Shown here one piece after another: positions 2,510 through 27,036 of a stretch of 32,000 bases of DNA. The notes under the pieces were generated by a model that did no database searches, was not told where the DNA came from, and saw only the letters and a list, made by a program, of their open reading frames with translations. Origin of the DNA: Cereibacter sphaeroides 2.4.1 (GTDB lineage: Bacteria > Pseudomonadota > Alphaproteobacteria > Rhodobacterales > Rhodobacteraceae); the NCBI RefSeq assembly GCF_000012905.2, contig NC_007493.2:1770001-1802000 (forward strand), in the 5' to 3' direction. A program made the translations under genes and the position numbers. Position 1 is the stretch's first letter. Each line of letters begins with the position of its first letter.

Positions 2510-2525
2510 TGGCGCAGAACTTGCA
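2510..2525 (+). promoter_or_regulatory. Sigma-54 (RpoN) promoter TGGCGC-N5-TTGCA in front of the motF-like gene
   Basis: TGGCGCagaacTTGCA has the correct -24 GG / -12 GC spacing. It lies 10 nt after the flhB stop and about 29 nt before ATG 2554, with GGAGAG as RBS between them. Confidence 0.75.
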
Positions 2526-3955: not shown

Positions 3956-5284
3956 TCAGAGCGCGCCGGTGACGATGGCCTGACGGCGGCGCTGCACCGA
4001 CGAGGGGATGTTCAGCTGCTCGCGATATTTGGCGACGGTGCGCCGGGCAAGCGTCACGCCCTCGTCGGAAATGATCTTTGCGATCGCATCGTCGCTCAGC
4101 GGATCGTCGGGCGATTCCGCCTGCACGAGCTGGCGGACGCGGTGCCGGACAGCGGCGGCCGATCCCGCCGTGTCGCCCTCGCGGGCGGCCAGCGCTGCGG
4201 TGAAAAACGACTTCAGCGGGAAGGTGCCCTGCGGCGTGGCGATCATCAGCCCCGAGCTCACCCGGCTGACGGTGCTTTCATGCACGCCCACCGCATCGGC
4301 CACCTCGCGCAGCGTCATGGGCGCCATGCGCGCCAGCCCCTCCTCGAGGAAGCCGCGCTGCCGGCGGACCACCTCGGCGCCGATCTTGAGCGTGGTCTGG
4401 TTGCGATGCTCGACGGCCCTTGCAAGCCATTTCGCGACCGACAGCCGCTCGCCCACATAGGGCGCGGCCGTCCGGGCGAAGCCTTCCGCCGCGTCCGAGC
4501 GCACCACGACGGACGGCAGCGTCGAGCGGTTCAGATCCACTCGCCAGCCTTCGGCGCCGCGGCTGACCACCAGATCCGGCGGTCGCTGGGGCGGAGGGGC
4601 GGCATCGAACAGCGCGCCCGGCTTGGGATTGAGACCGCGCAGGCTGCGCAGCACGGCCTTCAGATCCTCCATCCCGCAGCCGCAAGCGCGGCACAGGCCC
4701 TTGAGATCGGCCGCAGCCAGCAGCGGGAGATGCGCGAGAACGGCGGCGAACAGCGGGGTGAGCAGCCCCTGCTCTTCCGCCTGAAGCTGCAGGCATTCGG
4801 CAAGCGTGCGCGCAAAGAGCCCTGCGGGTTCGATCTTCTGAAGCCGGGCGAGCAGCGCCTCGGCCGCCTCGAGCGACAGGCCCGCGCGGAAGGCAAGTTC
4901 CTCCATCGGGCGACCGAGCCAGCCCCAGGGTTCGAGCGCGTCGAGAAAGACCTGGGCGGCCGCCGCTTGCGGGGCATCGAACCCCAGACGCGCGATCTCG
5001 GCCGCCACATGCACATAGAGCGACGGCCCCGGATCGGCGGCAAGCCCTGCCACGCGGTCCCAGTCCTCGGGTGCGGTCTTGCCCAGAGGAGCGGACGGCA
5101 CCGGCGCCGGCGGCAGGCGCAGTTCGATGAAAGGGTTTTCCTCCGACTGGCTCTCGATGAACGAGGACAGTTCGGCGTTCGGCATCTGCAGCAGGCAGAT
5201 GGCCTGCTGGAGCTGTGCCGTCACCACGAGCGACTGGCGCTGTGCGAAGCTCTGTGCGGTGTAAAGCTGCATTCCCGGCGTCAT
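3956..5284 (-). CDS. rpoN: RNA polymerase sigma-54 factor, flagellar-cluster paralog (about 442 aa)
   Basis: Region I is QSLVVTAQLQQAICLLQMPNAEL. The C-terminal part has an HTH and the RpoN box (GVTLARRTVAKYREQL). The start is either ATG 5284 or ATG 5272; the track start at 5398 (TTG) adds a non-homologous extension. In R. sphaeroides the copy in this position is called rpoN2. Confidence 0.9.
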   Translation of the reverse strand: MTPGMQLYTAQSFAQRQSLVVTAQLQQAICLLQMPNAELSSFIESQSEENPFIELRLPPAPVPSAPLGKTAPEDWDRVAGLAADPGPSLYVHVAAEIARLGFDAPQAAAAQVFLDALEPWGWLGRPMEELAFRAGLSLEAAEALLARLQKIEPAGLFARTLAECLQLQAEEQGLLTPLFAAVLAHLPLLAAADLKGLCRACGCGMEDLKAVLRSLRGLNPKPGALFDAAPPPQRPPDLVVSRGAEGWRVDLNRSTLPSVVVRSDAAEGFARTAAPYVGERLSVAKWLARAVEHRNQTTLKIGAEVVRRQRGFLEEGLARMAPMTLREVADAVGVHESTVSRVSSGLMIATPQGTFPLKSFFTAALAAREGDTAGSAAAVRHRVRQLVQAESPDDPLSDDAIAKIISDEGVTLARRTVAKYREQLNIPSSVQRRRQAIVTGAL

Positions 5285-5410
5285 CCCCACCCTGTCGTAG
5301 GAACAGAGTGGCGGAAAATGGCCGGCCGGGCAAAATTTCAGTTTGACAGGGGTAAAATGACGGCGGTTCGACGCGAGACCTGCCGCCGCGGCGGCCAAGT
5401 GCTTGTCGCG

Positions 5411-5465: not shown

Positions 5466-6947
5466 TCAGCCGCGGAGCAGACTCAGGACGTTCTGCTTCG
5501 AGGAGTTCGCCTGCGCCAGCATCGCCGTCGAGGCCTGGCTCAGGATCTGCGAGCGGGCGAGGTTCGTCGATTCCGCCGCGAAGTCGGCGTCCATCACCTG
5601 CGACTTGGCGGCCTGCACGCTGGTCGAGATGTTGGTCAGGTTCGAGATCGTCGAGTCGAGGCGGTTCGAGACCGCACCCAGTTCCGAGCGCGACTGGCTG
5701 ATCTTCGAGAGCGCCACGTCGATCACACCGATGGCGGCCGACGCACCTTCGGCCGTGGACAGGTCGATCTCGGCCACCGAGCTGAGTTCCGAACCCTCGT
5801 TGGCGTTGGCGAAGTGGGCGGTGGCGCTGCCCGAGACCGAGGCCGCAACCGAGAAGGACTTGGTCGAGACGAGGTCCACCTGCCCGGTCACGCCGGCGCT
5901 CTTGTTCGTGCCGAAGCCGATGTCCACGTTGGTGGCGGTGGCGGTGCCATCGGATTTCAGCGCGGTCACCTTGAAGTCGGCCGTGGTGGAGGAGACGCTC
6001 GTCAGCATGATGTCATCGCCGTTCGCGTCGGTGAGAACGATCTTGCTGTTGTCGTCCTTGGCCATGGCGGCGGTGATGCCGGTCTGACCCGAGACCGCGT
6101 TGATCGCGTCGCGCAGGCCGCGGACGTCGGACGCGTCGGTGATGCTCACGTCGCCGATCGAGACCTCGTTGCCATCGGCGGTGCCGATCTTGAAGGTCAC
6201 CGTGTCGCCCTTGGTGAAGCCCGACAGCTGCGCCTTGGTGGTGGCCGTGGCCTCGACGCCGGTGCTCGAGGTCTTCTTGTTGATGGATTCGGCCAGCGTG
6301 CGCGCGGAGTCGCCCGCCGCCGTCGTGATCTTGTCGCTGCCGGCGAAGCCCGTGATCGTGATGTCGGTCGAGGCGGCGATCGTCGTGTCGGTGAGGGCCG
6401 CGTCGGCCACGACGGTCGAGGCGCTGGAGATCTTGTGGGCGCCGATGTCGGTGGCCGCGGCGCTGTCCACGTTGATCGCCATGGTCTGGCCCGAGTCGGC
6501 TCCGATCTGGAGCTGCTTGCCGGTGAAGGAGCCGTCGAGCACCTTCATGCCGTTGAAGGTCGTGGATTCCGCCACGCGGTTGATCTCGGCGATCAGCTGC
6601 TTGCCTTCGGCCGCGAGCGACCCGCGGTCGGCGGCGGTGTTGGTGTCGTTCGAGGACTGAACGGCCAGTTCGCGCAGACGCTGGAGCATCGAGGAAACCT
6701 CGACGTGCGCGCCTTCGGTCGTGTCCACGAGGTTCTTGCCGTCCTGCGCGTTCCGGATCGCCTGATTGAGACCCATGACCTGTGCGGTCATCTTCTCGCC
6801 GATGGCCATGCCGGCCGCGTCATCCTTGGCTGCGTTGATGCGCAGGCCGGTGGAGAGGCGCGTCATGGCCGTGTTGAACTGGTCGTTCACCTTGGTCATG
6901 TTGGCCTGAGCCGCGATGGCACCGATGTTCGTGTTGATCGTCGTCAT
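5466..6947 (-). CDS. fliC: Flagellin FliC (493 aa)
   Basis: The N-terminus MTTINTNIGAIAAQANMTKVNDQFNTAMTRLSTGLRINAAKDDAAG and the C-terminus ...LAQANSSKQNVLSLLRG are flagellin D0/D1 segments. The middle is Thr/Ala/Ser-rich and variable. An AGGAGG RBS lies 8 nt upstream. Confidence 0.97.
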   Translation of the reverse strand: MTTINTNIGAIAAQANMTKVNDQFNTAMTRLSTGLRINAAKDDAAGMAIGEKMTAQVMGLNQAIRNAQDGKNLVDTTEGAHVEVSSMLQRLRELAVQSSNDTNTAADRGSLAAEGKQLIAEINRVAESTTFNGMKVLDGSFTGKQLQIGADSGQTMAINVDSAAATDIGAHKISSASTVVADAALTDTTIAASTDITITGFAGSDKITTAAGDSARTLAESINKKTSSTGVEATATTKAQLSGFTKGDTVTFKIGTADGNEVSIGDVSITDASDVRGLRDAINAVSGQTGITAAMAKDDNSKIVLTDANGDDIMLTSVSSTTADFKVTALKSDGTATATNVDIGFGTNKSAGVTGQVDLVSTKSFSVAASVSGSATAHFANANEGSELSSVAEIDLSTAEGASAAIGVIDVALSKISQSRSELGAVSNRLDSTISNLTNISTSVQAAKSQVMDADFAAESTNLARSQILSQASTAMLAQANSSKQNVLSLLRG

Positions 6948-7024: not shown

Positions 7025-7130
7025 GCGCCCCTCCCAAAAATCCGCGGCAGGCGGAGGCTGCCCTTTGACAGCCGTTCGGACAAGGCCGTCGCGGCCTGCG
7101 GCAGCTTGCATCCTTCTTGCAGGGGCGGGC

Positions 7131-7157
7131 TAAAGCCCTGCGGACACGCGCCGTTAA
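7131..7157 (+). promoter_or_regulatory. Sigma-28 (FliA)-type promoter for fliD: TAAA-N15-GCCGTTAA
   Basis: TAAAGCCCTGCGGACACGCGCCGTTAA has exact canonical spacing and 7 of 8 matches in the -10. It lies 29 nt before ATG 7186. Confidence 0.7.
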
Positions 7158-7185
7158 TCCGGGGGTAGAGCGCAAGGAGCATCCC

Positions 7186-8871: not shown

Positions 8872-9972
8872 TCACGCCGCGCTGCACCGCATGATGCCGA
8901 ACTTCTTCATCTTCTCGATCAGCGTCGTGCGGCGCAGGCGCAGCGCATCGGCCGCACGGCTCACGCAGCCATCGCGCTTGGCCAGCGCCGCCTCGATCAG
9001 CGCCACCTCGATGTCGCGCAGATAGCCGCGCAGGTCGAGGTCGGCCCGCCCCTCGAGCATGTCATGGAACTGGCTCGGTTCGGGCAGTCCCTGCGCCTCT
9101 GGCGCAGCCGCCGGTTGCTGGCCCGCGGGCCCCTCGGGATCGGGCATGGCGAGCTGCAGAAGGTTCTCGCGCACATGGCGCGCGGTCACGATCCGGCCCG
9201 GAAAGAGCACGATGGCGCGGGCAAGCACGTTGCGCAATTCGCGCACATTGCCCGGCCACGAATGCCCGGCGAGCGCCCGCAGCGCGCTGGTGTCGAAATG
9301 CGGCAGATCCAGTGCCGGATCCCGCGCCAGCTGATCCTCCAGCATCCGCGCGAGGATCAGCGGAATGTCCGAGGCGCGCTCGCGCAGGTCGGGCAGTTCG
9401 AGCGGAAAGACGTTGATGCGGTAGTAGAGATCGCAGCGAAAGCCGCCCGCCGCCACCTGCGCGTCGAGGTTGCGGTGCGTGGCCGTCACGAGGCGGAAAT
9501 CGACCTCGATCTCGCTGGTGCCGCCCACGCGCGAGATGCGGCGGCTTTCGAGAACGCGGAGCAGCTTGGCCTGCAGCGCCAGCGGCATGTCCCCGATCTC
9601 GTCGAGAAAGAGCGTGCCGCCGTGGGCCATCTCGATCCGGCCGATCCGCTGCCGGTCGGCGCCGGTAAAGGCGCCCTTCTCATGGCCGAAAAGCTCGGAT
9701 TCGAGCAGGTCCGCCGGAATGGCGGCGCAGTTGACCGCGATCAGCGCCCCGCCGCGGCCCGAGGCCCGGTGCAGCGCCTCGGCGGCCAGTTCCTTGCCGG
9801 TGCCGGTCGATCCCCGCACGAGGACGGGCGCATCGCTGACGGCGACCGCGGCGATCAGTTGCTTCACCCGGCAGATCGAAACCGACTCGCCCGGGATCAC
9901 CCGATTGATGAGGCCGGCAGGAGGGGGAAGCGGGCGGGAGCGGGCGCCCTCGGGCGAGAAGTGACTGGTCAT
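8872..9972 (-). CDS. fleQ: Sigma-54-dependent transcriptional activator lacking an N-terminal regulatory domain (FleQ-like, 366 aa)
   Basis: Walker A is GSTGTGKE, the sigma-54 contact loop is EKGAFTGA, and the C-terminal HTH is [24 protein letters not shown]. Start ATG 9972 is preferred. The in-frame stretch 9973-10101 is AT-rich with low GC3, unlike coding DNA here. Confidence 0.85.
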
Positions 9973-10125
9973 GCGGCGGGGCCATGCCTCAAAAATGGTT
10001 AACTGATCCTCAAGATCGTCGACCTGCGCCCATGCTGCAACTGCATCAATGGCTTGTCCGAACGGATAAAAGCAGGGGTCACGCCCGAGAGACAGAGGCA
10101 CTATCCTTTTGGACAGGTATGCGCC

Positions 10126-10923
10126 TCACGGTTGCATTGCGAGCAGGTCGCGGAAGGACTGGACCGCGTGGAACCGGGCGCGCAGGCGCTGCGGAAGGTC
10201 CGCCTCGGCGAGGAGGTCCGGGGCGGCTGCGCGAAGCTCCAGAGGCCCCTGCGAGGGAATGTCGGAGGCCGCCCGGGGCAGCCCTCCCTGCGTCTCGCCG
10301 AGGCTCACCATCGGCTGCGGAGCCAGCACGAGGAGGCCCTGCACGCGCGCGGCGGCGAGGGTCGCCTCGTCGGGCAGGTCCGTCGCGGCCTCGGCCAGAC
10401 GCGATCCGCCGCGCTCGGCCTCGACCTTGGCGAGATAGGCCGCGCCGCGCCCGCGATCGGCCGAATGATAGGCCGCCGTCGCCGCCTCCCACGAGCCGAG
10501 ACGGGCGCGGAGTTCGCGCAGGAAGCGCGCCGCATGGCGGGTGTTGCGCACAGGATCGATCATCTCGTCGGCCGAAGCGAAGGCGGGCGCATGCCAGCGC
10601 CAGTTGAGCTGCATGCAGCCCACGTCGATGTTGGACACGCCCGAGGCGACCGTCGACTTGAGCATGCGCACCGCCTCGGCCCGGGTCTCGAAGAACATGC
10701 CGCGCCCACCCTGGTTCAGCGTCCAGGGCCAGGCGCGCCCGCCCCGGCCCGATTCCACGCGGGCAATCGCCTCCATCAGCCCCTCGGGTATGCCGGCCTC
10801 GGCACCGGCCCGGGCCGCGAGCGTCTCGCAGACCTCGTCCGCCGCGAGCGCGGGGGCGGCCAGAAGCGTCAGGATCAGGACGAGCGCGAACCTCATGCCC
10901 GTCGCGGGCAAGGGCCGTGCCAT
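10126..10923 (-). CDS. sltF: Flagellar soluble lytic transglycosylase (SltF-like, 265 aa; alternative start 10896)
   Basis: The signal peptide is MRFALVLILTLLAAPALA. SLT-domain motifs are present (IARVESG catalytic Glu, NIDVGCMQLN, AAYHS). It lies directly after flgL with a 6-nt gap. Confidence 0.85.
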   Translation of the reverse strand: MARPLPATGMRFALVLILTLLAAPALAADEVCETLAARAGAEAGIPEGLMEAIARVESGRGGRAWPWTLNQGGRGMFFETRAEAVRMLKSTVASGVSNIDVGCMQLNWRWHAPAFASADEMIDPVRNTRHAARFLRELRARLGSWEAATAAYHSADRGRGAAYLAKVEAERGGSRLAEAATDLPDEATLAAARVQGLLVLAPQPMVSLGETQGGLPRAASDIPSQGPLELRAAAPDLLAEADLPQRLRARFHAVQSFRDLLAMQP

Positions 10924-19277: not shown

Positions 19278-19293
19278 TGCAAGCCCCGTGCCA
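19278..19293 (-). promoter_or_regulatory. Sigma-54 promoter TGGCAC-N5-TTGCA for the flgG operon
   Basis: The - strand reads TGGCACggggcTTGCA, a perfect consensus. It sits in the 53-nt flgF-flgG gap, about 34 nt upstream of the flgG ATG. Confidence 0.85.
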
Positions 19294-22030: not shown

Positions 22031-22450
22031 TCACTGCCCCATGCTGGCGGTGCGGGCCATGAGCGACCGCAGCGTCGAGACCGCCTCGAGCGTGTTCTGA
22101 TACTGGCGGCTCGCCTCCATCATCTCGACCATCTCCTCGTCGACCGAGACCGGCGCCTCCCAGACATAGCCTTCGGGATCGGCCTGCGGATGATCGGGCC
22201 GGTAGACCCGCGCGGGCTCGCGGTCGAGGCTGACGACGCCCGCCACATCCGTGGTCGAGAGGCCGGTCCGGCCCACCGCATCGGCATAGCTCGTCTCGAA
22301 CACGGGCCGCAGCGGCCGGAAGGCCGTCTCGGCCTTGTCCGAGACGGTGCCCGCATTGGCGAGGTTGCTCGCCACCGTGTTCATCCGCACCATCTGCGCC
22401 GAGAGCGCCCGCGCGCCCACGTCGAAGACACTGTCGATCCCGTTCATCAT
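22031..22450 (-). CDS. flgC: Proximal rod protein FlgC (139 aa; second ATG at 22447 is equally possible)
   Basis: [35 protein letters not shown] ... [29 protein letters not shown]. The start overlaps the flgB stop (ATGATGA). The rest of track ORF 22031..22885 is an off-frame extension over flgB. Confidence 0.92.
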
Positions 22451-22833
22451 TCCCCCTTGATCGCCGTCATCAGGCCCGAGATGCGCCGGTTGAGGAGCGC
22501 GAGGCTCGTCTGGTAGCGCAGGGTGTTTTCCGCAAATTCCATCTGCTCCACGGCCATCTCGACCGTGTTGCCGTCGAGCGAGGGCGTGACCGGATCGCGG
22601 TAGAGCGCCTCGCCCCTCGCGGCCGGGCCGCCCGCCGCGAAATGGCGCGCCTCGGTGGTGCGCAGCGTGCCGTTGCCCGACGCCCGGGCGAGCTCCGCTC
22701 CGAAGTCGATGTCGCGCGCCTTGTAATGCGGGGTCGCGGCATTCGCGATGTTCGAGGTCAGCAGGTTGTTGCGCGTCTCGCGCAGGACGAGGGCCTGCGC
22801 ATGGACCCCCAGCTGATCGCGAAATCCCGTCAT
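22447..22833 (-). CDS. flgB: Proximal rod protein FlgB (128 aa)
   Basis: [28 protein letters not shown] ... [36 protein letters not shown]. An AAGGAGGA RBS is present. Confidence 0.93.
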
Positions 22834-22868
22834 CCGTTCCTCCTTGGCGCCGCCGCGCGGGCGGCATC

Positions 22869-22884
22869 TGGACCGGGACTTGCA
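22869..22884 (+). promoter_or_regulatory. Candidate sigma-54 promoter TGGACC-N5-TTGCA facing the 388-aa orphan gene
   Basis: The + strand reads TGGACCgggacTTGCA. GG and GC are correctly spaced, but two mismatches follow the GG. The predicted start is near 22895, 28 nt before ATG 22923, with a GAGGAG RBS. It shares TTGCAA 22880-22885 with the flgB promoter. Confidence 0.45.
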
Positions 22885-22896
22885 AGGACGATGCCA
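22881..22896 (-). promoter_or_regulatory. Sigma-54 promoter TGGCAT-N5-TTGCA for the flgB operon
   Basis: The - strand reads TGGCATcgtccTTGCA. The predicted transcription start is near 22870, giving a leader of about 37 nt to the flgB ATG at 22833. Confidence 0.8.
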
Positions 22897-22922
22897 GATG
22901 CCCAGCCTCCGAGGAGAAAGCG

Positions 22923-24089
22923 ATGCCCGCGTCGTCCGATCTGGCCCGTCATCCCGCGCTCGACGCGGCCGCGCGCGCCGTGCTGGCGCTTCTCGAGCCT
23001 CTGGACCGGAGGGAGGGCCTCGCGCGTCTCGAAGCCCTCCATGCCGCGGCCGCCCCCGGTCCGGCCCGACGCGCGTTGCTCGCCGCCCGGATCGCGCTCC
23101 TGCGCGGCGCGCCGGCGCTGGCGCCTCCCGCCGTCATGCCGGAACCCGAGCCGGAGCCGGAGCCGCCCGCCCCCGAGCCGCCGGCGCCGAAGCCCGTGGT
23201 GATCCCGCAGCTCGATCTTTCGGCCATGATGGCGCTCTTCGAGGATGCCGAGGAGGAACCCGCCGCGGATGCCGCCCCCCCGGACGAGGGCTGGACCCGG
23301 ATCCGCCTGACCGAGGACGGCCCGCGCGGCCCCGGCCAGTTTCCGAAGGGCGCGGCACTCTCGGTGACGCTCGAGGATGCGGCGCGGCTCCTCACTGCGG
23401 GCGTCGCCGAAGAGATGGAGGCAGGTCCCGCCGAGACGGAGCCTTCGCCGCCCGATGCCCCGCAAGAGGCCGCCGTTGCAGGAGATCCTGACGCGGACGG
23501 CACGTCCGCGGAGCCGCCTCACGCCGCCGGACCTGCGCGCCGGCCGAAGCGCAGCGCGCGCCGCAAGACATCGGCCGGCGCCGCGTCCGAAGGGACCGCC
23601 GTGGAAGAGACAGCTCCCAAGGCGCGCGCCTCAAGGGGCCCGCGCCGGTCCCGGCGTGCTGCGGCCGAAGATCCCGGCACGGAGACCATCCCGGCACCCG
23701 CCACCGGCGAGAAAGAGCCGCCCTCTCCGGGTCTCCATCCGCCGACGCAGGCCGCCTTCGTGACATCCGGCGGCCAGCCCTCCGCCGACGTCCCGGCAGT
23801 GGGGCGGCTGCAGACGCTCGATGCCGCGGCCCCGGCGGCCTCGGAGGAACCGGATCCTGACGCGGTTGGCGCCCCTGAGGACGATCCCGCCCCGACCGCC
23901 AAAGGCGTTGCTCCGCCTGCAGAGGCCCCCCCTGTGCGGGGGCGGCCCCAGGGCTTCAATCCCGCCGCATTCGCCGCCCTCGCGGCCTTCGGGGACACCG
24001 ATCCCGCAGAGGATGCGGAAGAAATCGGCGGCGAACCGGGCGTCGGCAAGGCTCCAGATGGGACTGCGCCGCCCACGACGTCAGCATGA
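22923..24089 (+). CDS. Acidic Pro/Ala-rich, probably intrinsically disordered protein of unknown function (388 aa)
   Basis: ATG with a GAGGAG RBS 8 nt upstream. GC3 is high, especially in the first half. The N-terminal ~70 aa are helical, followed by a [19 protein letters not shown] linker, a short ordered-looking core ([39 protein letters not shown]), a basic patch ([12 protein letters not shown]...SRGPRRSRR) and an acidic tail. There is no signal peptide or TM segment. Other frames give only Arg/Gly-rich nonsense. Confidence 0.6.
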
Positions 24090-24369: not shown

Positions 24370-27036
24370 TCAGGCGGCGGTGGCCTGACAGGCGGCAGCG
24401 GTGCGTTCCAGCGTCGCGGGCAGGCTCTCGAGCGCGCGCGCGGCCTCAGCCGTGTTCGACGCGTCGGCTGCCGTTTCGTAGCTCGCAAGGCTGCGGTGCA
24501 GCGCCATGAGGCCCACGGCCGCCGCCGCCCCCGCCGTCCGGTGCGCGAGCTTGGCGGCCGCCAGATGATCGCCCGCCTCGTGCAGGCGCCGCATCTCGGG
24601 GAGCGCGTCGCCCGTCTCGCTCAGCACCCTGCCGATCATGCCCGCGATATAATCGGGCCCGAGATTGCCCTCGAGGTCGGCCCGCAGCTCGGCGTCGATC
24701 AGCGGCAGATCGTCGGGTGGCGGGTCGCCAGCGGGGAGCACCTCCTCGACCGCGGCGCTGGTTTCCGTGAACTGGCGGATGGCGCGAAACAGCGCCGAGC
24801 GCGTGATGGGCTTCACCAGCACGTCATTCATGCCGGCTGCGAGGAAGTCGGGGACACGGTCCGGGTCGGCATGGGCCGTGGCACCGAGGATGGGCGTGTC
24901 GGTCGAGGCGCCGGCCCGCCGGATCCGTCGCGTGGCCTCGAGCCCGTCCACGCGCGGCATCGAGACATCCATCAGGATCAGGTCGAAGCGGCGGGCGCCA
25001 GCCGCCTCGGCCGCCTCGGCGCCATCCTCGGCCGTCGCCACCTCGTGCCCCGCCATCCGCAGGATCTCGGCGAGGAGCTGACGGTTGATCGCATTGTCAT
25101 CGACCACGAGGATCGCGCGGGCGCCGTCCCCGGCCGATGGCGCATCCTCCGCGAACTCCTCCTGGGCCGCCTCGGCCCCCTGCGCCACGGGCAGCTGCAG
25201 GCGAAGCGTGAAGACGGATCCGAGCCCCAGCTTGCTCTGGACGTCGATCTGCCCGCCCATGGTCTCGGCGGCGAGCTTGGCGATGCCGAGGCCGAGGCCC
25301 GTCCCTTCGCGGATGCGCCCGTAGGAGGCGTCGAGCGTCTCGAAATTGCGGAAGATCGTGTCGAGATGCTCCTCCGCAATGCCGATGCCCGTATCGCCCA
25401 CATGGATGCAGAGGTCGACGGTGCCGGACGTGCGGCCCGGGTGCCAGAGCAGCTCGACCGAGACCTTGCCATTGTCGGTGAACTTGATGGCATTGCCGAT
25501 CAGGTTGTACATCACCCGCAGGAACAGGTGGCGCTGCCCGAGCACGGGCGGCACCGGGTTCTTGGGCTGCGCGAACCACAGCTTGTTGCCGCGCTTGTCG
25601 GCCTGCGGCTGGTTCTGCCGGATCAGCCCCTCGATGAGATCCACCGGCGAGAAGACCGTGCGGGCGTAGCTCGCGCCGTCCTTGTCCGACAGCCGCGTCA
25701 GCTCGAGCACGTTGTTCACCTGATCGAGTGCCGCCGAGCCGCAGCCGATCACGATGTCGGTGAGCCAGCGCTGTCTGTCGGTGAGATCCGTCGAGGTCTG
25801 CAGCAGGTCGGAGGCAGCCATCAGCCCGTTGAGCGGCGTCCGCATCTCGTGGCTCATGACCGCGAGGAAGCGCGACTTGGCCTCTTCGCCCTTCAGCGCG
25901 TCATTGCGCGCCTTCTTCAGGCTCTCCTCACGCTCGAGCCGCTCGGAGATGTCGCGGATGAAGGCGATGAAGAACGGATCCTGCGACGCGCCCTGCGCCT
26001 CGGCCACCGAGACCTCGACCGGGAAGGTCGAGCCGTTCGTGCGCTGCGCCATCATCGTAATGCGCCCGTCGCGCCCGGTCGGGTTCAGCTCCGCCTCTTC
26101 CTCGCCCCGCGCGTGAGGACGCAGCAACCCGTCAGCATCGTCCGTGCGGATATAGTCGACGAAATTCGTGCCTTCGGCCGTCTGCGGCGACCAGCGGAAC
26201 ATGTCCAGCGCCGCACGGTTACATTCGACCACCCGCCCCATGTGGTCGAGCACCACCACCGCATCCAGCGAGGATTCGATGGTGGCGCGCAGGTTGTGGA
26301 CCGACCGTTCGAGCAGCATTCCGCGGCGACGGCGGGCGTTGCTCTGCACGATCACCACGGCGATCAGCACCCCCATCAGCCCCAGAAGTCCGAGGGCCGC
26401 CAGTGCGAACGTCTGGAGCGACTGGCGCAGCGTCGCGCGCCGCGCGTCCGAGACGGTCATCACTTCCCCGAGCGCGCGCACCACGCCCGAGCGGACCGAT
26501 CCCGCATCCCTCTCGAGCTCCCCGATCAGCTGCGGAAGAGCGGCTCTCAGGTCCGCATCCGGCCCGTCGATGACGGGGATCCAGCGGGCGAAGAACCCCT
26601 CCGGCCCGTCGAAGATCGGCAGCACGTCGGCCTCGAGCGGTGCAATGGTGCCGCTTTCGAATCCGCGGACGATGTCCACGCGGCTGTAGAGGATGTCGAA
26701 CCTCTTGCGGAGCTCGTCGAGTCGGGCCGGATCGTCCGACCGATAGGCGGCCATCTGCGCCGCCGAGGCGAGATTCAGCACATCCACCTCGAACTGCGCG
26801 AGCACCCAGGTCCGGTTGTCGAGATGGGCGACCCGATTCTGCTCGAGCTGCTTGTCGATGTCGGAAAAGATGAAGATCGCCGCCACCAGAGCCGTGACGC
26901 CGACCGCGAGGACGAGCACATACCCCGTCCAGCGCTCGAACACGCCCCCCGGAGCCGTGTCGCGGCTTTCGGAGAACATGGCCTGAACCTCTGCTCCCCG
27001 CTCGCCTCCGTCCGGTATGCGGGGGCGCTCGGTCAT
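24370..27036 (-). CDS. Hybrid sensor histidine kinase: TM - ~150-aa periplasmic domain - TM - PAS - HisKA - HATPase - REC - Hpt (888 aa)
   Basis: - TM helices: YVLVLAVGVTALVAAIFIF and FALAALGLLGLMGVLIAVVIV.
- H-box: FLAVMSHEMRTPLNG.
- N-box: NLIGNAIKFT.
- G-boxes: DTGIGI and GTGLGLGI.
- Receiver: ILVVDDN...DLILMDVSMP...VLVKP.
- C-terminal Hpt: LAHRTAGAAAAVG.
- The start ATG overlaps the stop of the upstream gene (ATGA). Confidence 0.92.
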   Translation of the reverse strand: MTERPRIPDGGERGAEVQAMFSESRDTAPGGVFERWTGYVLVLAVGVTALVAAIFIFSDIDKQLEQNRVAHLDNRTWVLAQFEVDVLNLASAAQMAAYRSDDPARLDELRKRFDILYSRVDIVRGFESGTIAPLEADVLPIFDGPEGFFARWIPVIDGPDADLRAALPQLIGELERDAGSVRSGVVRALGEVMTVSDARRATLRQSLQTFALAALGLLGLMGVLIAVVIVQSNARRRRGMLLERSVHNLRATIESSLDAVVVLDHMGRVVECNRAALDMFRWSPQTAEGTNFVDYIRTDDADGLLRPHARGEEEAELNPTGRDGRITMMAQRTNGSTFPVEVSVAEAQGASQDPFFIAFIRDISERLEREESLKKARNDALKGEEAKSRFLAVMSHEMRTPLNGLMAASDLLQTSTDLTDRQRWLTDIVIGCGSAALDQVNNVLELTRLSDKDGASYARTVFSPVDLIEGLIRQNQPQADKRGNKLWFAQPKNPVPPVLGQRHLFLRVMYNLIGNAIKFTDNGKVSVELLWHPGRTSGTVDLCIHVGDTGIGIAEEHLDTIFRNFETLDASYGRIREGTGLGLGIAKLAAETMGGQIDVQSKLGLGSVFTLRLQLPVAQGAEAAQEEFAEDAPSAGDGARAILVVDDNAINRQLLAEILRMAGHEVATAEDGAEAAEAAGARRFDLILMDVSMPRVDGLEATRRIRRAGASTDTPILGATAHADPDRVPDFLAAGMNDVLVKPITRSALFRAIRQFTETSAAVEEVLPAGDPPPDDLPLIDAELRADLEGNLGPDYIAGMIGRVLSETGDALPEMRRLHEAGDHLAAAKLAHRTAGAAAAVGLMALHRSLASYETAADASNTAEAARALESLPATLERTAAACQATAA

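Follow-up and report, generated by a model that had tools for sequence, protein, structure and literature searches.

The 32,000-nt stretch of the Cereibacter sphaeroides 2.4.1 genome considered here (contig NC_007493.2, positions 1,770,001 to 1,802,000, analysed at its full length and referred to below as the window) covers the right half of the fla1 flagellar cluster, as judged from Pfam matches and open reading frame (ORF) analysis. The subject of this report is a 28-bp element at positions 22869 to 22896, lying in the gap between flgB, the first gene of the rod/hook operon (22447 to 22833, minus strand), and a divergently oriented gene encoding 388 amino acids (22923 to 24089, plus strand). 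The flgB gene was recognized from its ORF and translation. Its product gives a weak match to the Pfam family Flg_bb_rod, and a published table lists it as RSP_0083 (PMC9779115). Since the locus tags follow the gene order of the window (flgL 0073, flgI 0076, flgF 0079, flgC 0082; PMC9779115), the gene next to flgB must be RSP_0084, annotated as "hypothetical protein". Its 388-residue product is identical to ABA79259.1 of C. sphaeroides 2.4.1. For convenience the gene is also called orfX, and lineages having or lacking it next to flgB are designated orfX+ and orfX-, respectively.

The minus strand of the gap carries a sigma-54 promoter for flgB (TGGCATCGTCCTTGCA, 22896 to 22881; TGGCAT-CGTCC-TTGCA) with a single mismatch to the consensus TGGCAC-N5-TTGCW. 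Its -24 element (TGGCAT) occupies 22896 to 22891 and, past the CGTCC spacer, its -12 element (TTGCA) occupies 22885 to 22881, predicting a transcription start near 22870; the flgB start codon at 22833 is preceded by the ribosome-binding site (RBS) AAGGAGGA (22845 to 22838). The Camarena and Dreyfus groups reportedly described a promoter of this class for the flgB operon (Poggio in 2000, Ballado in 2001). On the plus strand lies a putative sigma-54 promoter for RSP_0084 (TGGACCGGGACTTGCA, 22869 to 22884; TGGACC-GGGAC-TTGCA), made up of a -24 element (TGGACC, 22869 to 22874), the spacer GGGAC and a -12 element (TTGCA, 22880 to 22884), with a predicted start near 22895. Both strands have GG and GC at the exact sigma-54 spacing.

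The original prediction, made from the sequence of the window, had placed two such opposed motifs at these positions on a common TTGCAA and had called the plus-strand match the weaker one. Both motifs are indeed there, and the plus-strand match has two mismatches to the consensus against one on the minus strand. The distance between the two start codons (89 bp, from flgB at 22833 to the 388-residue ORF at 22923) was also given correctly, as were the predicted leaders of about 37 nt for flgB and about 28 nt for the divergent ORF, the latter including a GAGGAG RBS at 22911 to 22916. The shared hexamer TTGCAA (22880 to 22885) is palindromic, with its dyad at 22882.5, and gives TTGCA to each strand; the two GG doublets, GG at 22870 to 22871 and CC at 22894 to 22895, mirror each other about this dyad, as had been noted. 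The predicted starts, near 22870 on the minus strand and near 22895 on the plus strand, are about 25 bp apart and face outward, each falling on the GG of the opposite promoter. The symmetry extends further than the prediction had recognized: perfect 9-nt outer arms, GGCATCTGG (22863 to 22871) and CCAGATGCC (22894 to 22902), delimit a 40-bp imperfect palindrome (22863 to 22902) that forms a conserved intergenic core within the genus Cereibacter. The -24 elements themselves are unequal, strong on the flgB side (TGGCAT) and weak on the RSP_0084 side (TGGACC).

The comparison with relatives drew on 58 loci encoding FlgB relatives (43-70% identity, one genome per species), of which one (L058) was spurious, leaving 57. 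Homologues of RSP_0084 were sought with its N-terminal 200 residues as query. The gene had been termed an orphan, wrongly: it belongs to a conserved family found head-to-head with flgB in 35 of the 57 loci, with the gene lying directly 5' of flgB and reading from the other strand, at G+C contents from 30 to 72%. The pairing spans SAR116/Puniceispirillum, Yoonia, Lacimonas, Tabrizicola, Rhodobacter and Paracoccus genomes. The family has no match in Pfam or NCBIfam, and every homologue is labelled "hypothetical". RSP_0084 itself has a conserved N-terminal three-helix domain, a small beta domain and a tail rich in Pro, Ala and Glu. An AlphaFold2 (AF2) model of RSP_0084 comprises a confident three-helix bundle (predicted local distance difference test score, pLDDT, of about 90) and the small beta domain, and finds no fold match in the PDB below E = 0.04.

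The annotated start of RSP_0084 needs care, for newer annotations lose the conserved N-terminal domain. Some RefSeq versions begin 92-105 codons later (296 and 283 amino acids), dropping the three-helix domain with its pLDDT of about 90 as well as the RBS and the ATG, which four Cereibacter species have in common. The surroundings of the gene vary as well. At two SAR116-type loci (L022, 204-2906; L014, 1215-2887) the RSP_0084 homologue stands opposite a small gene of the Pfam family DUF2802, the order in L022 being flgA, flgM, a small unidentified ORF, the DUF2802 gene, the RSP_0084 homologue (opposite strand) and flgB. In C. sphaeroides and its closest relatives the far-side partner is not a DUF2802 gene; it is a hybrid PAS histidine kinase (24370 to 27036, minus strand), which is kept in L004 and L059-L062.

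For the statistics on the promoter region, L045 was left out, its promoter-like match lying inside the flgB coding sequence on an apparently rearranged contig. Dereplication then gave 22 orfX+ and 18 orfX- lineages. Nearly all of the 57 loci have the sequence TGGCAY-N5-TTGC at a distance of 52-128 nt ahead of flgB. The complete hexamer TTGCAA is present in 21 of the 22 orfX+ lineages vs 1 of the 18 orfX- lineages. With offsets taken relative to the T in the flgB TGG, a CC at 25-26 corresponds to a GG on the opposite strand at the exact sigma-54 spacing; TTGCAA and this CC occur together in 19/22 orfX+ lineages, where base composition predicts about 1.4/22, and in just 1/18 orfX- lineages (Fisher p = 4e-7, a test that overstates independence because the two groups largely coincide with clades). 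Information content reaches 1.3-1.45 bits at the CC vs 0.1-0.3 bits at its neighbours, that is, the eight bases from TTGCAA to the CC and the bases beyond it. Tests of individual positions identified A16, Y20, R22, C25 and A29 as specific to orfX+ lineages, with p from 3.5e-5 to 9e-4. Read on the reverse strand, A16 is the first T of TTGCA, Y20 corresponds to purine positions behind the hexamer, R22 is the Y closing TGGNNY, C25 is the G of the -24 element and A29 is the T two bases ahead of TGG; a T/Y preference is also seen directly upstream of the TGG on the flgB side. By this comparison, the orfX+-specific positions are the consensus positions of a putative sigma-54 promoter aimed at RSP_0084.

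The geometry of the divergent gene is conserved along with the motif. In nearly all loci its start codon, with an RBS before it, lies 19-37 nt past the predicted reverse start, and this short, fixed leader leaves no space for another promoter between the divergent gene and the flgB promoter. Alignment of the related loci revealed no further conserved block between the two start codons. Within Cereibacter, the 40-bp block GGCATCTGGACCGGGACTTGCAAGGA(C/G)GATGCCAGATGCC hardly varies among C. azotoformans, C. sediminicola and C. ovatus, with both leaders diverging around it, and the RBS and the ATG corresponding to 22923 are retained in four species of the genus.

Expression data are available from an RNA-seq study of the small RNA UdsC (PMC9779115). 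RSP_0084 rises by 2.86 log2 units within 15 min of UdsC overexpression and falls by about 1.7 to 1.8 log2 units in the UdsC deletion strain (PMC9779115). Sigma-54-dependent fla1 genes move likewise; flgB, for example, changes by +4.65 and -2.19 (PMC9779115). The tags of the sigma-28-dependent genes fliC and fliD, and that of RSP_0085, the downstream kinase gene, are absent from the supplementary text of that study. RSP_0084 is co-regulated with the fla1 regulon, and its expression fits, but does not prove, membership of the class governed by FleQ, FleT and RpoN2.

We propose that the 28 bp at 22869 to 22896 act as a conserved bidirectional sigma-54 (RpoN2) promoter. Based on sequence comparison and this one indirect expression data set, the probability of this proposal is put at roughly two in three. 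Its main competitor, which we consider unlikely, is that only the flgB promoter functions: the plus-strand match would be a by-product of constraints on flgBp (an A after TTGCA and a C-C-A start context), and RSP_0084 would use some other, unrecognised promoter or sigma factor.

Several observations weigh against the bidirectional promoter, many of them in favour of this competitor. Within the window, the plus-strand match is at chance level. Sites with up to two mismatches to TGGCAC-N5-TTGCW number 10, where 9.4 are expected, and the chance rate for matches of the quality of the plus-strand -24 element is about one per 32 kb. When all 63,964 window positions were scored with a position weight matrix trained on the flgB promoters of relatives, shuffled sequence serving as control, the flgB promoter had the top score (22.5 bits) and the plus-strand site ranked 5/63,964, yet shuffles give about one site as good. 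Once the -12 element reads TTGCAA, the opposite strand needs just a well-placed TGG. Furthermore, the plus-strand -24 element has no more than TGG and the closing pyrimidine in common with the consensus, lacking the CA of TGGCAC, and the reverse -24 element is poor across loci (TGGACC, TGGTGT, TGGTCC), from which it follows that the promoter, if functional, would be weak. Among the relatives, besides the overlap of the two groups with clades, C26 is common in both (20/22 orfX+, 13/18 orfX-) and is best read as the pyrimidine preceding the flgB start site; part of the CCA conservation probably reflects that start site (pyrimidine at -1, purine at +1). The record within clades is mixed. L010 and L013 have neither gene nor motif (no more than a remnant of the gene survives in L010, E = 0.44), the reverse GG is missing from the gene-bearing L032 and L033, in L036 the reverse GG is displaced by 1 bp, and two Rhodobacter-type metagenome-assembled genomes, L016 (269-2902) and L017 (1409-2887), have lost the gene and kept the motif. 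Finally, no activator site was identified in the first 370 nt of RSP_0084 or among k-mers shared near sigma-54 promoters (see below).

The two loci with a motif and no gene have a structure of their own. A long co-directional gene takes the place of the divergent gene and ends about 20 nt before the flgB promoter, and TTGCAA-N8-CCT is still there. The arrangement looks like a recent gene loss that has left a relic of the reverse element.

What tells against a promoter active toward flgB only is, in the first place, that A16, Y20, R22, C25 and A29 are orfX+-specific and match the reverse sigma-54 consensus, features absent from the remaining sigma-54 promoters of the window. The other strong sigma-54 sites (flgG, 19293 to 19278; and 2510 to 2525) are without TTGCAA and the downstream CC, a combination that is specific to the flgB promoter among the sigma-54 sites of the window; GG-N10-GC alone is uninformative there (865 seen, 867 expected). 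In the second place, searches for another promoter came up empty. A scan of 22500 to 23100 for sigma-70-like promoters found none, no TAAA-N15-GCCGATAA-like sigma-28 site is visible in the flgB/RSP_0084 gap, and a sigma-70 promoter using TTGCAA as its -35 element was rejected since, by our own reading of the sequences, its start would fall inside the RBS. The shortness and fixed length of the divergent leader, the lack of any other conserved element between the start codons and the parallel behaviour of RSP_0084 and the sigma-54-dependent fla1 genes in RNA-seq all point the same way. Thus, the original idea of two opposed sigma-54 promoters built on one palindromic -12 element gains comparative evidence from the relatives, while the window taken by itself offers what chance would.

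Far less probable is that the 40-bp palindrome serves as an operator for a dimeric regulator of the flgB promoter, such as a repressor or an anti-activator, the likeness to a reverse -24 element being incidental. The perfect 9-nt arms, 31 bp apart centre to centre and kept in four Cereibacter species, would suit this role; however, the symmetry beyond (C)TGG is gone outside the genus and the conserved positions are exactly those relevant to sigma-54 (GG, GC and the exact spacing). Moreover, the 14/20 symmetric pairs of the palindrome are the window maximum but are tied with nine other sites, and since ten window sites reach this value the palindrome was rejected as a stand-alone statistic. Least credible of all is that the reverse site merely docks RpoN2 holoenzyme unproductively, throttling the flgB operon or adding noise to it while RSP_0084 is expressed by other means: the full overlap of the two sites implies by its geometry that occupancy of one would exclude the other, and bidirectional sigma-70 promoters have been shown to compete in this manner under strong activation of one direction (PMC12825309), but the site is kept only where an RBS-bearing gene starts 19-37 nt downstream, and that gene is co-regulated with fla1.

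If the bidirectional promoter is real, its presumed sigma factor in both directions is RpoN2, the product of the rpoN paralogue of fla1 (3956 to 5398, minus strand; Pfam Sigma54_AID, CBD and DBD), whose role in this cluster is stated in a review (PMC7277832). The presumed activator of both promoters is FleQ together with FleT. A FleQ-type enhancer-binding protein is encoded at 8872 to 10101 (minus strand; Pfam Sigma54_activat and HTH_8, without a receiver domain) and FleT outside the window. In the fla1 regulatory hierarchy, class III genes need RpoN and an enhancer-binding ATPase (PMC7277832). RpoN2 holoenzyme would dock on TTGCAA facing either way, with TGGCAT as the strong anchor toward flgB and TGGACC as the weak anchor toward RSP_0084. 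Either closed complex would cover the same 28 bp plus flanks, and because the cores overlap completely we infer that only one could be present at a time. The FleQ/FleT complex would then remodel whichever closed complex it finds. Both transcription units would answer the same signal, that of fla1 class III, and so be strictly co-regulated, with an output ratio set by the affinities of the -24 elements: high for the rod/hook operon and low for RSP_0084, unequal and hard-wired.

Between the flgB -24 element and the start codon of RSP_0084 there are just 26 bp, so that an activator site would have to be placed within the coding sequence to the left or to the right. When the initial 370 nt of RSP_0084 (22890 to 23260) were aligned across four Cereibacter species, no conserved block of a non-coding type appeared, the conserved blocks being accounted for by one conserved peptide, and the 9-mers common to three sigma-54 promoter neighbourhoods amounted to noise. 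One candidate, ACGCTGCGCA, is the sole over-represented shared 10-mer. It has five exact copies (at 2303, 13297, 19522, 21144 and 22659, in flhB, flgK, flgF, flgE and flgB), where about 0.14 is estimated from base composition, and 13 copies with up to one mismatch, where shuffles give 6.2. It was rejected as an activator site: all five copies are in frame as Thr-Leu-Arg in preferred codons, a usage that dinucleotide shuffles do not model, which makes the excess a codon-usage artefact.

A second gene pair was encountered when metagenome contigs were scanned for the fully symmetric pattern TGGCAY-N5-TTGCAA-N5-RTGCCA. This pattern is matched at 117 loci (L063-L179; e.g. L135 at 6760-6787, L152 and L104), and 25 of the 117 represent one and the same gene pair. 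On one side, a GT39 (ArnT/PMT-like) membrane glycosyltransferase gene is followed by a membrane transporter gene in all six loci examined; five of the six have a YeeE/YedE-type transporter together with TusA. On the other side, a divergent gene for a HAMP histidine kinase is followed by one for an NtrC-type sigma-54 activator in 4/6 loci, that is, in all those where the next gene could be read. The logic is obvious: an autoregulated two-component system together with its target operon. To avoid selection by the pattern itself, six further GT39/kinase loci were retrieved by protein homology. The shared -12 site was present in four of these six, in perfect symmetric form in three (L180 at 2316-2343, L181 at 2479-2506 and L183 at 2425-2452) and in degenerate form, with TTGCAG and an opposing CGGCAC, in L182 (2250-2277). 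The most distant two, L184 and L185, have separate promoters 90-265 bp apart. At the GT39/kinase sites the spacers vary among loci and the three hexamers stay constant. Judging from these sequences, the shared -12 design appears to recur in an unrelated gene pair, here with two strong -24 elements.

It seems conceivable that back-to-back sigma-54 promoters sharing a palindromic TTGCAA are a recurrent, selected architecture, a generalization that we hold to be evenly balanced between true and false. One enhancer complex would serve two operons; the orientation would be chosen before activation, the -24 pair would fix the ratio, and firing would be exclusive at the level of the single molecule. 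The pair would be strong/weak at flgB/RSP_0084 and strong/strong between the two-component system and the GT39/sulfur-transport operon.

The remainder of the window has the following order: fliR and flhB, two small ORFs, the rpoN paralogue, fliC and fliD, the FleQ-type gene, sltF, flgL, a flgK of 1363 codons, then flgJ, I, H, G, F, E, D and C, and finally flgB. Several other promoter-like sites were noticed in it. A perfect sigma-54 consensus, TGGCACGGGGCTTGCA, is found at 19278 to 19293 (minus strand), in the 53-bp gap between flgF and flgG and 34 nt before the flgG ATG; it points to an internal promoter dividing the flg genes into flgBCDEF and flgG-onward units. An article by Ballado et al. 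from 2001 reportedly bears a title that fits this split. A further sigma-54 site, TGGCGCAGAACTTGCA (TGGCGC-N5-TTGCA; 2510 to 2525, plus strand), lies immediately past the flhB stop codon and is followed by an ATG at 2559 with the RBS GGAGAG, so the mechanical ORF start (GTG at 2497) is probably too early. The gene behind this site is RSP_0067, labelled "hypothetical" and strongly co-regulated with fla1, which we take to be MotF. A sigma-54-like site with one mismatch, TGGCACGGCCCTTGCC (10907 to 10922, minus strand), overlaps the first ATG of the sltF ORF, where a second ATG 27 nt further on opens the signal-peptide-like sequence MRFALVLIL; either the annotated sltF start or the promoter call must be wrong. 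Lastly, a sigma-28-type motif, CTAAAG-N15-GCCGTTAA (7129 to 7160, plus strand), is found ahead of fliD, where it overlaps the earliest potential start (TTG) of the fliD ORF, which fits fliD as a FliA-dependent class IV gene.

RSP_0084 emerges as a candidate flagellar gene, being head-to-head with flgB from SAR116 to the Rhodobacteraceae and following the fla1 regulon. Should the bidirectional promoter be borne out, symmetry-based bidirectional promoters, established for the sigma-70 -10 element, would reach into the enhancer-dependent sigma-54 class. Since sigma-54 closed complexes are long-lived and await the ATPase, the locus would also provide a natural, genetically tractable system for examining how holoenzyme chooses its orientation and whether one enhancer complex can fire either way. 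A 28-bp, activator-gated bidirectional promoter with a built-in output ratio could serve in synthetic circuits.

Comparison with known systems begins with the flgB side, which is an ordinary sigma-54 class III promoter of fla1. Its core is like those of the other class III promoters dependent on FleQ/FleT and RpoN2 (TGGCAY-N5-TTGCA, with GG and GC 10 nt apart), but here the palindromic -12 element would also serve a second, opposed -24 element. A review of the system mentions neither the second promoter nor RSP_0084, as far as checked (PMC7277832). At sigma-70 bidirectional promoters, a symmetric -10 element serves both orientations and binding in one excludes binding in the other, basal occupancy being too low for competition (Warman et al. 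2026, PMC12825309); sigma-54 is not mentioned in that work. The flgB/RSP_0084 element resembles those promoters in having one short pseudo-symmetric core, starts on opposite strands at a fixed distance and, as we infer here, mutual exclusion. It differs in that the sigma-70 -10 element is TATAAT with starts 18 bp apart, whereas the sigma-54 -12 element is TTGCAA with predicted starts about 25 bp apart. Sigma-54 closed complexes are stable. As they await their activator, the choice of orientation should matter more than at sigma-70 promoters. Such complexes need an ATP-dependent activator (PMC7277832).

Closest in biological setting are the divergent flhAp-flgAp sigma-54 promoters of R. sphaeroides, said to have been described by Pena-Sanchez et al. 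in 2009 as 53 bp apart, with activator sites about 200 bp downstream of each promoter, in the transcribed regions, and with contralateral cross-activation. Such downstream sites would make activator sites in the coding regions of flgB or RSP_0084 plausible. The organism, the activator pair and the sigma factor are reportedly the same and the gap is likewise very short, but flhAp and flgAp are two separate cores side by side, whereas the flgB and RSP_0084 cores overlap fully and have their -12 base pairs in common. In the full-text literature searched, no account of overlapping, divergent or bidirectional sigma-54 promoters with a common -12 element was found, and all the divergent sigma-54 arrangements known to us (hyc/hyp, zraP/zraSR, nifH/nifJ, flhAp/flgAp) have separate cores. 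In hyc/hyp and zraP/zraSR of E. coli and nifHDK/nifJ of Klebsiella, divergent sigma-54 operons have separate promoters and share upstream activator sites. The likeness lies in two divergent sigma-54 units fired by one activator; in those systems the enhancer sits in the tens to hundreds of bp that separate the promoters, whereas the two putative promoters at flgB/RSP_0084 have no intervening DNA at all.

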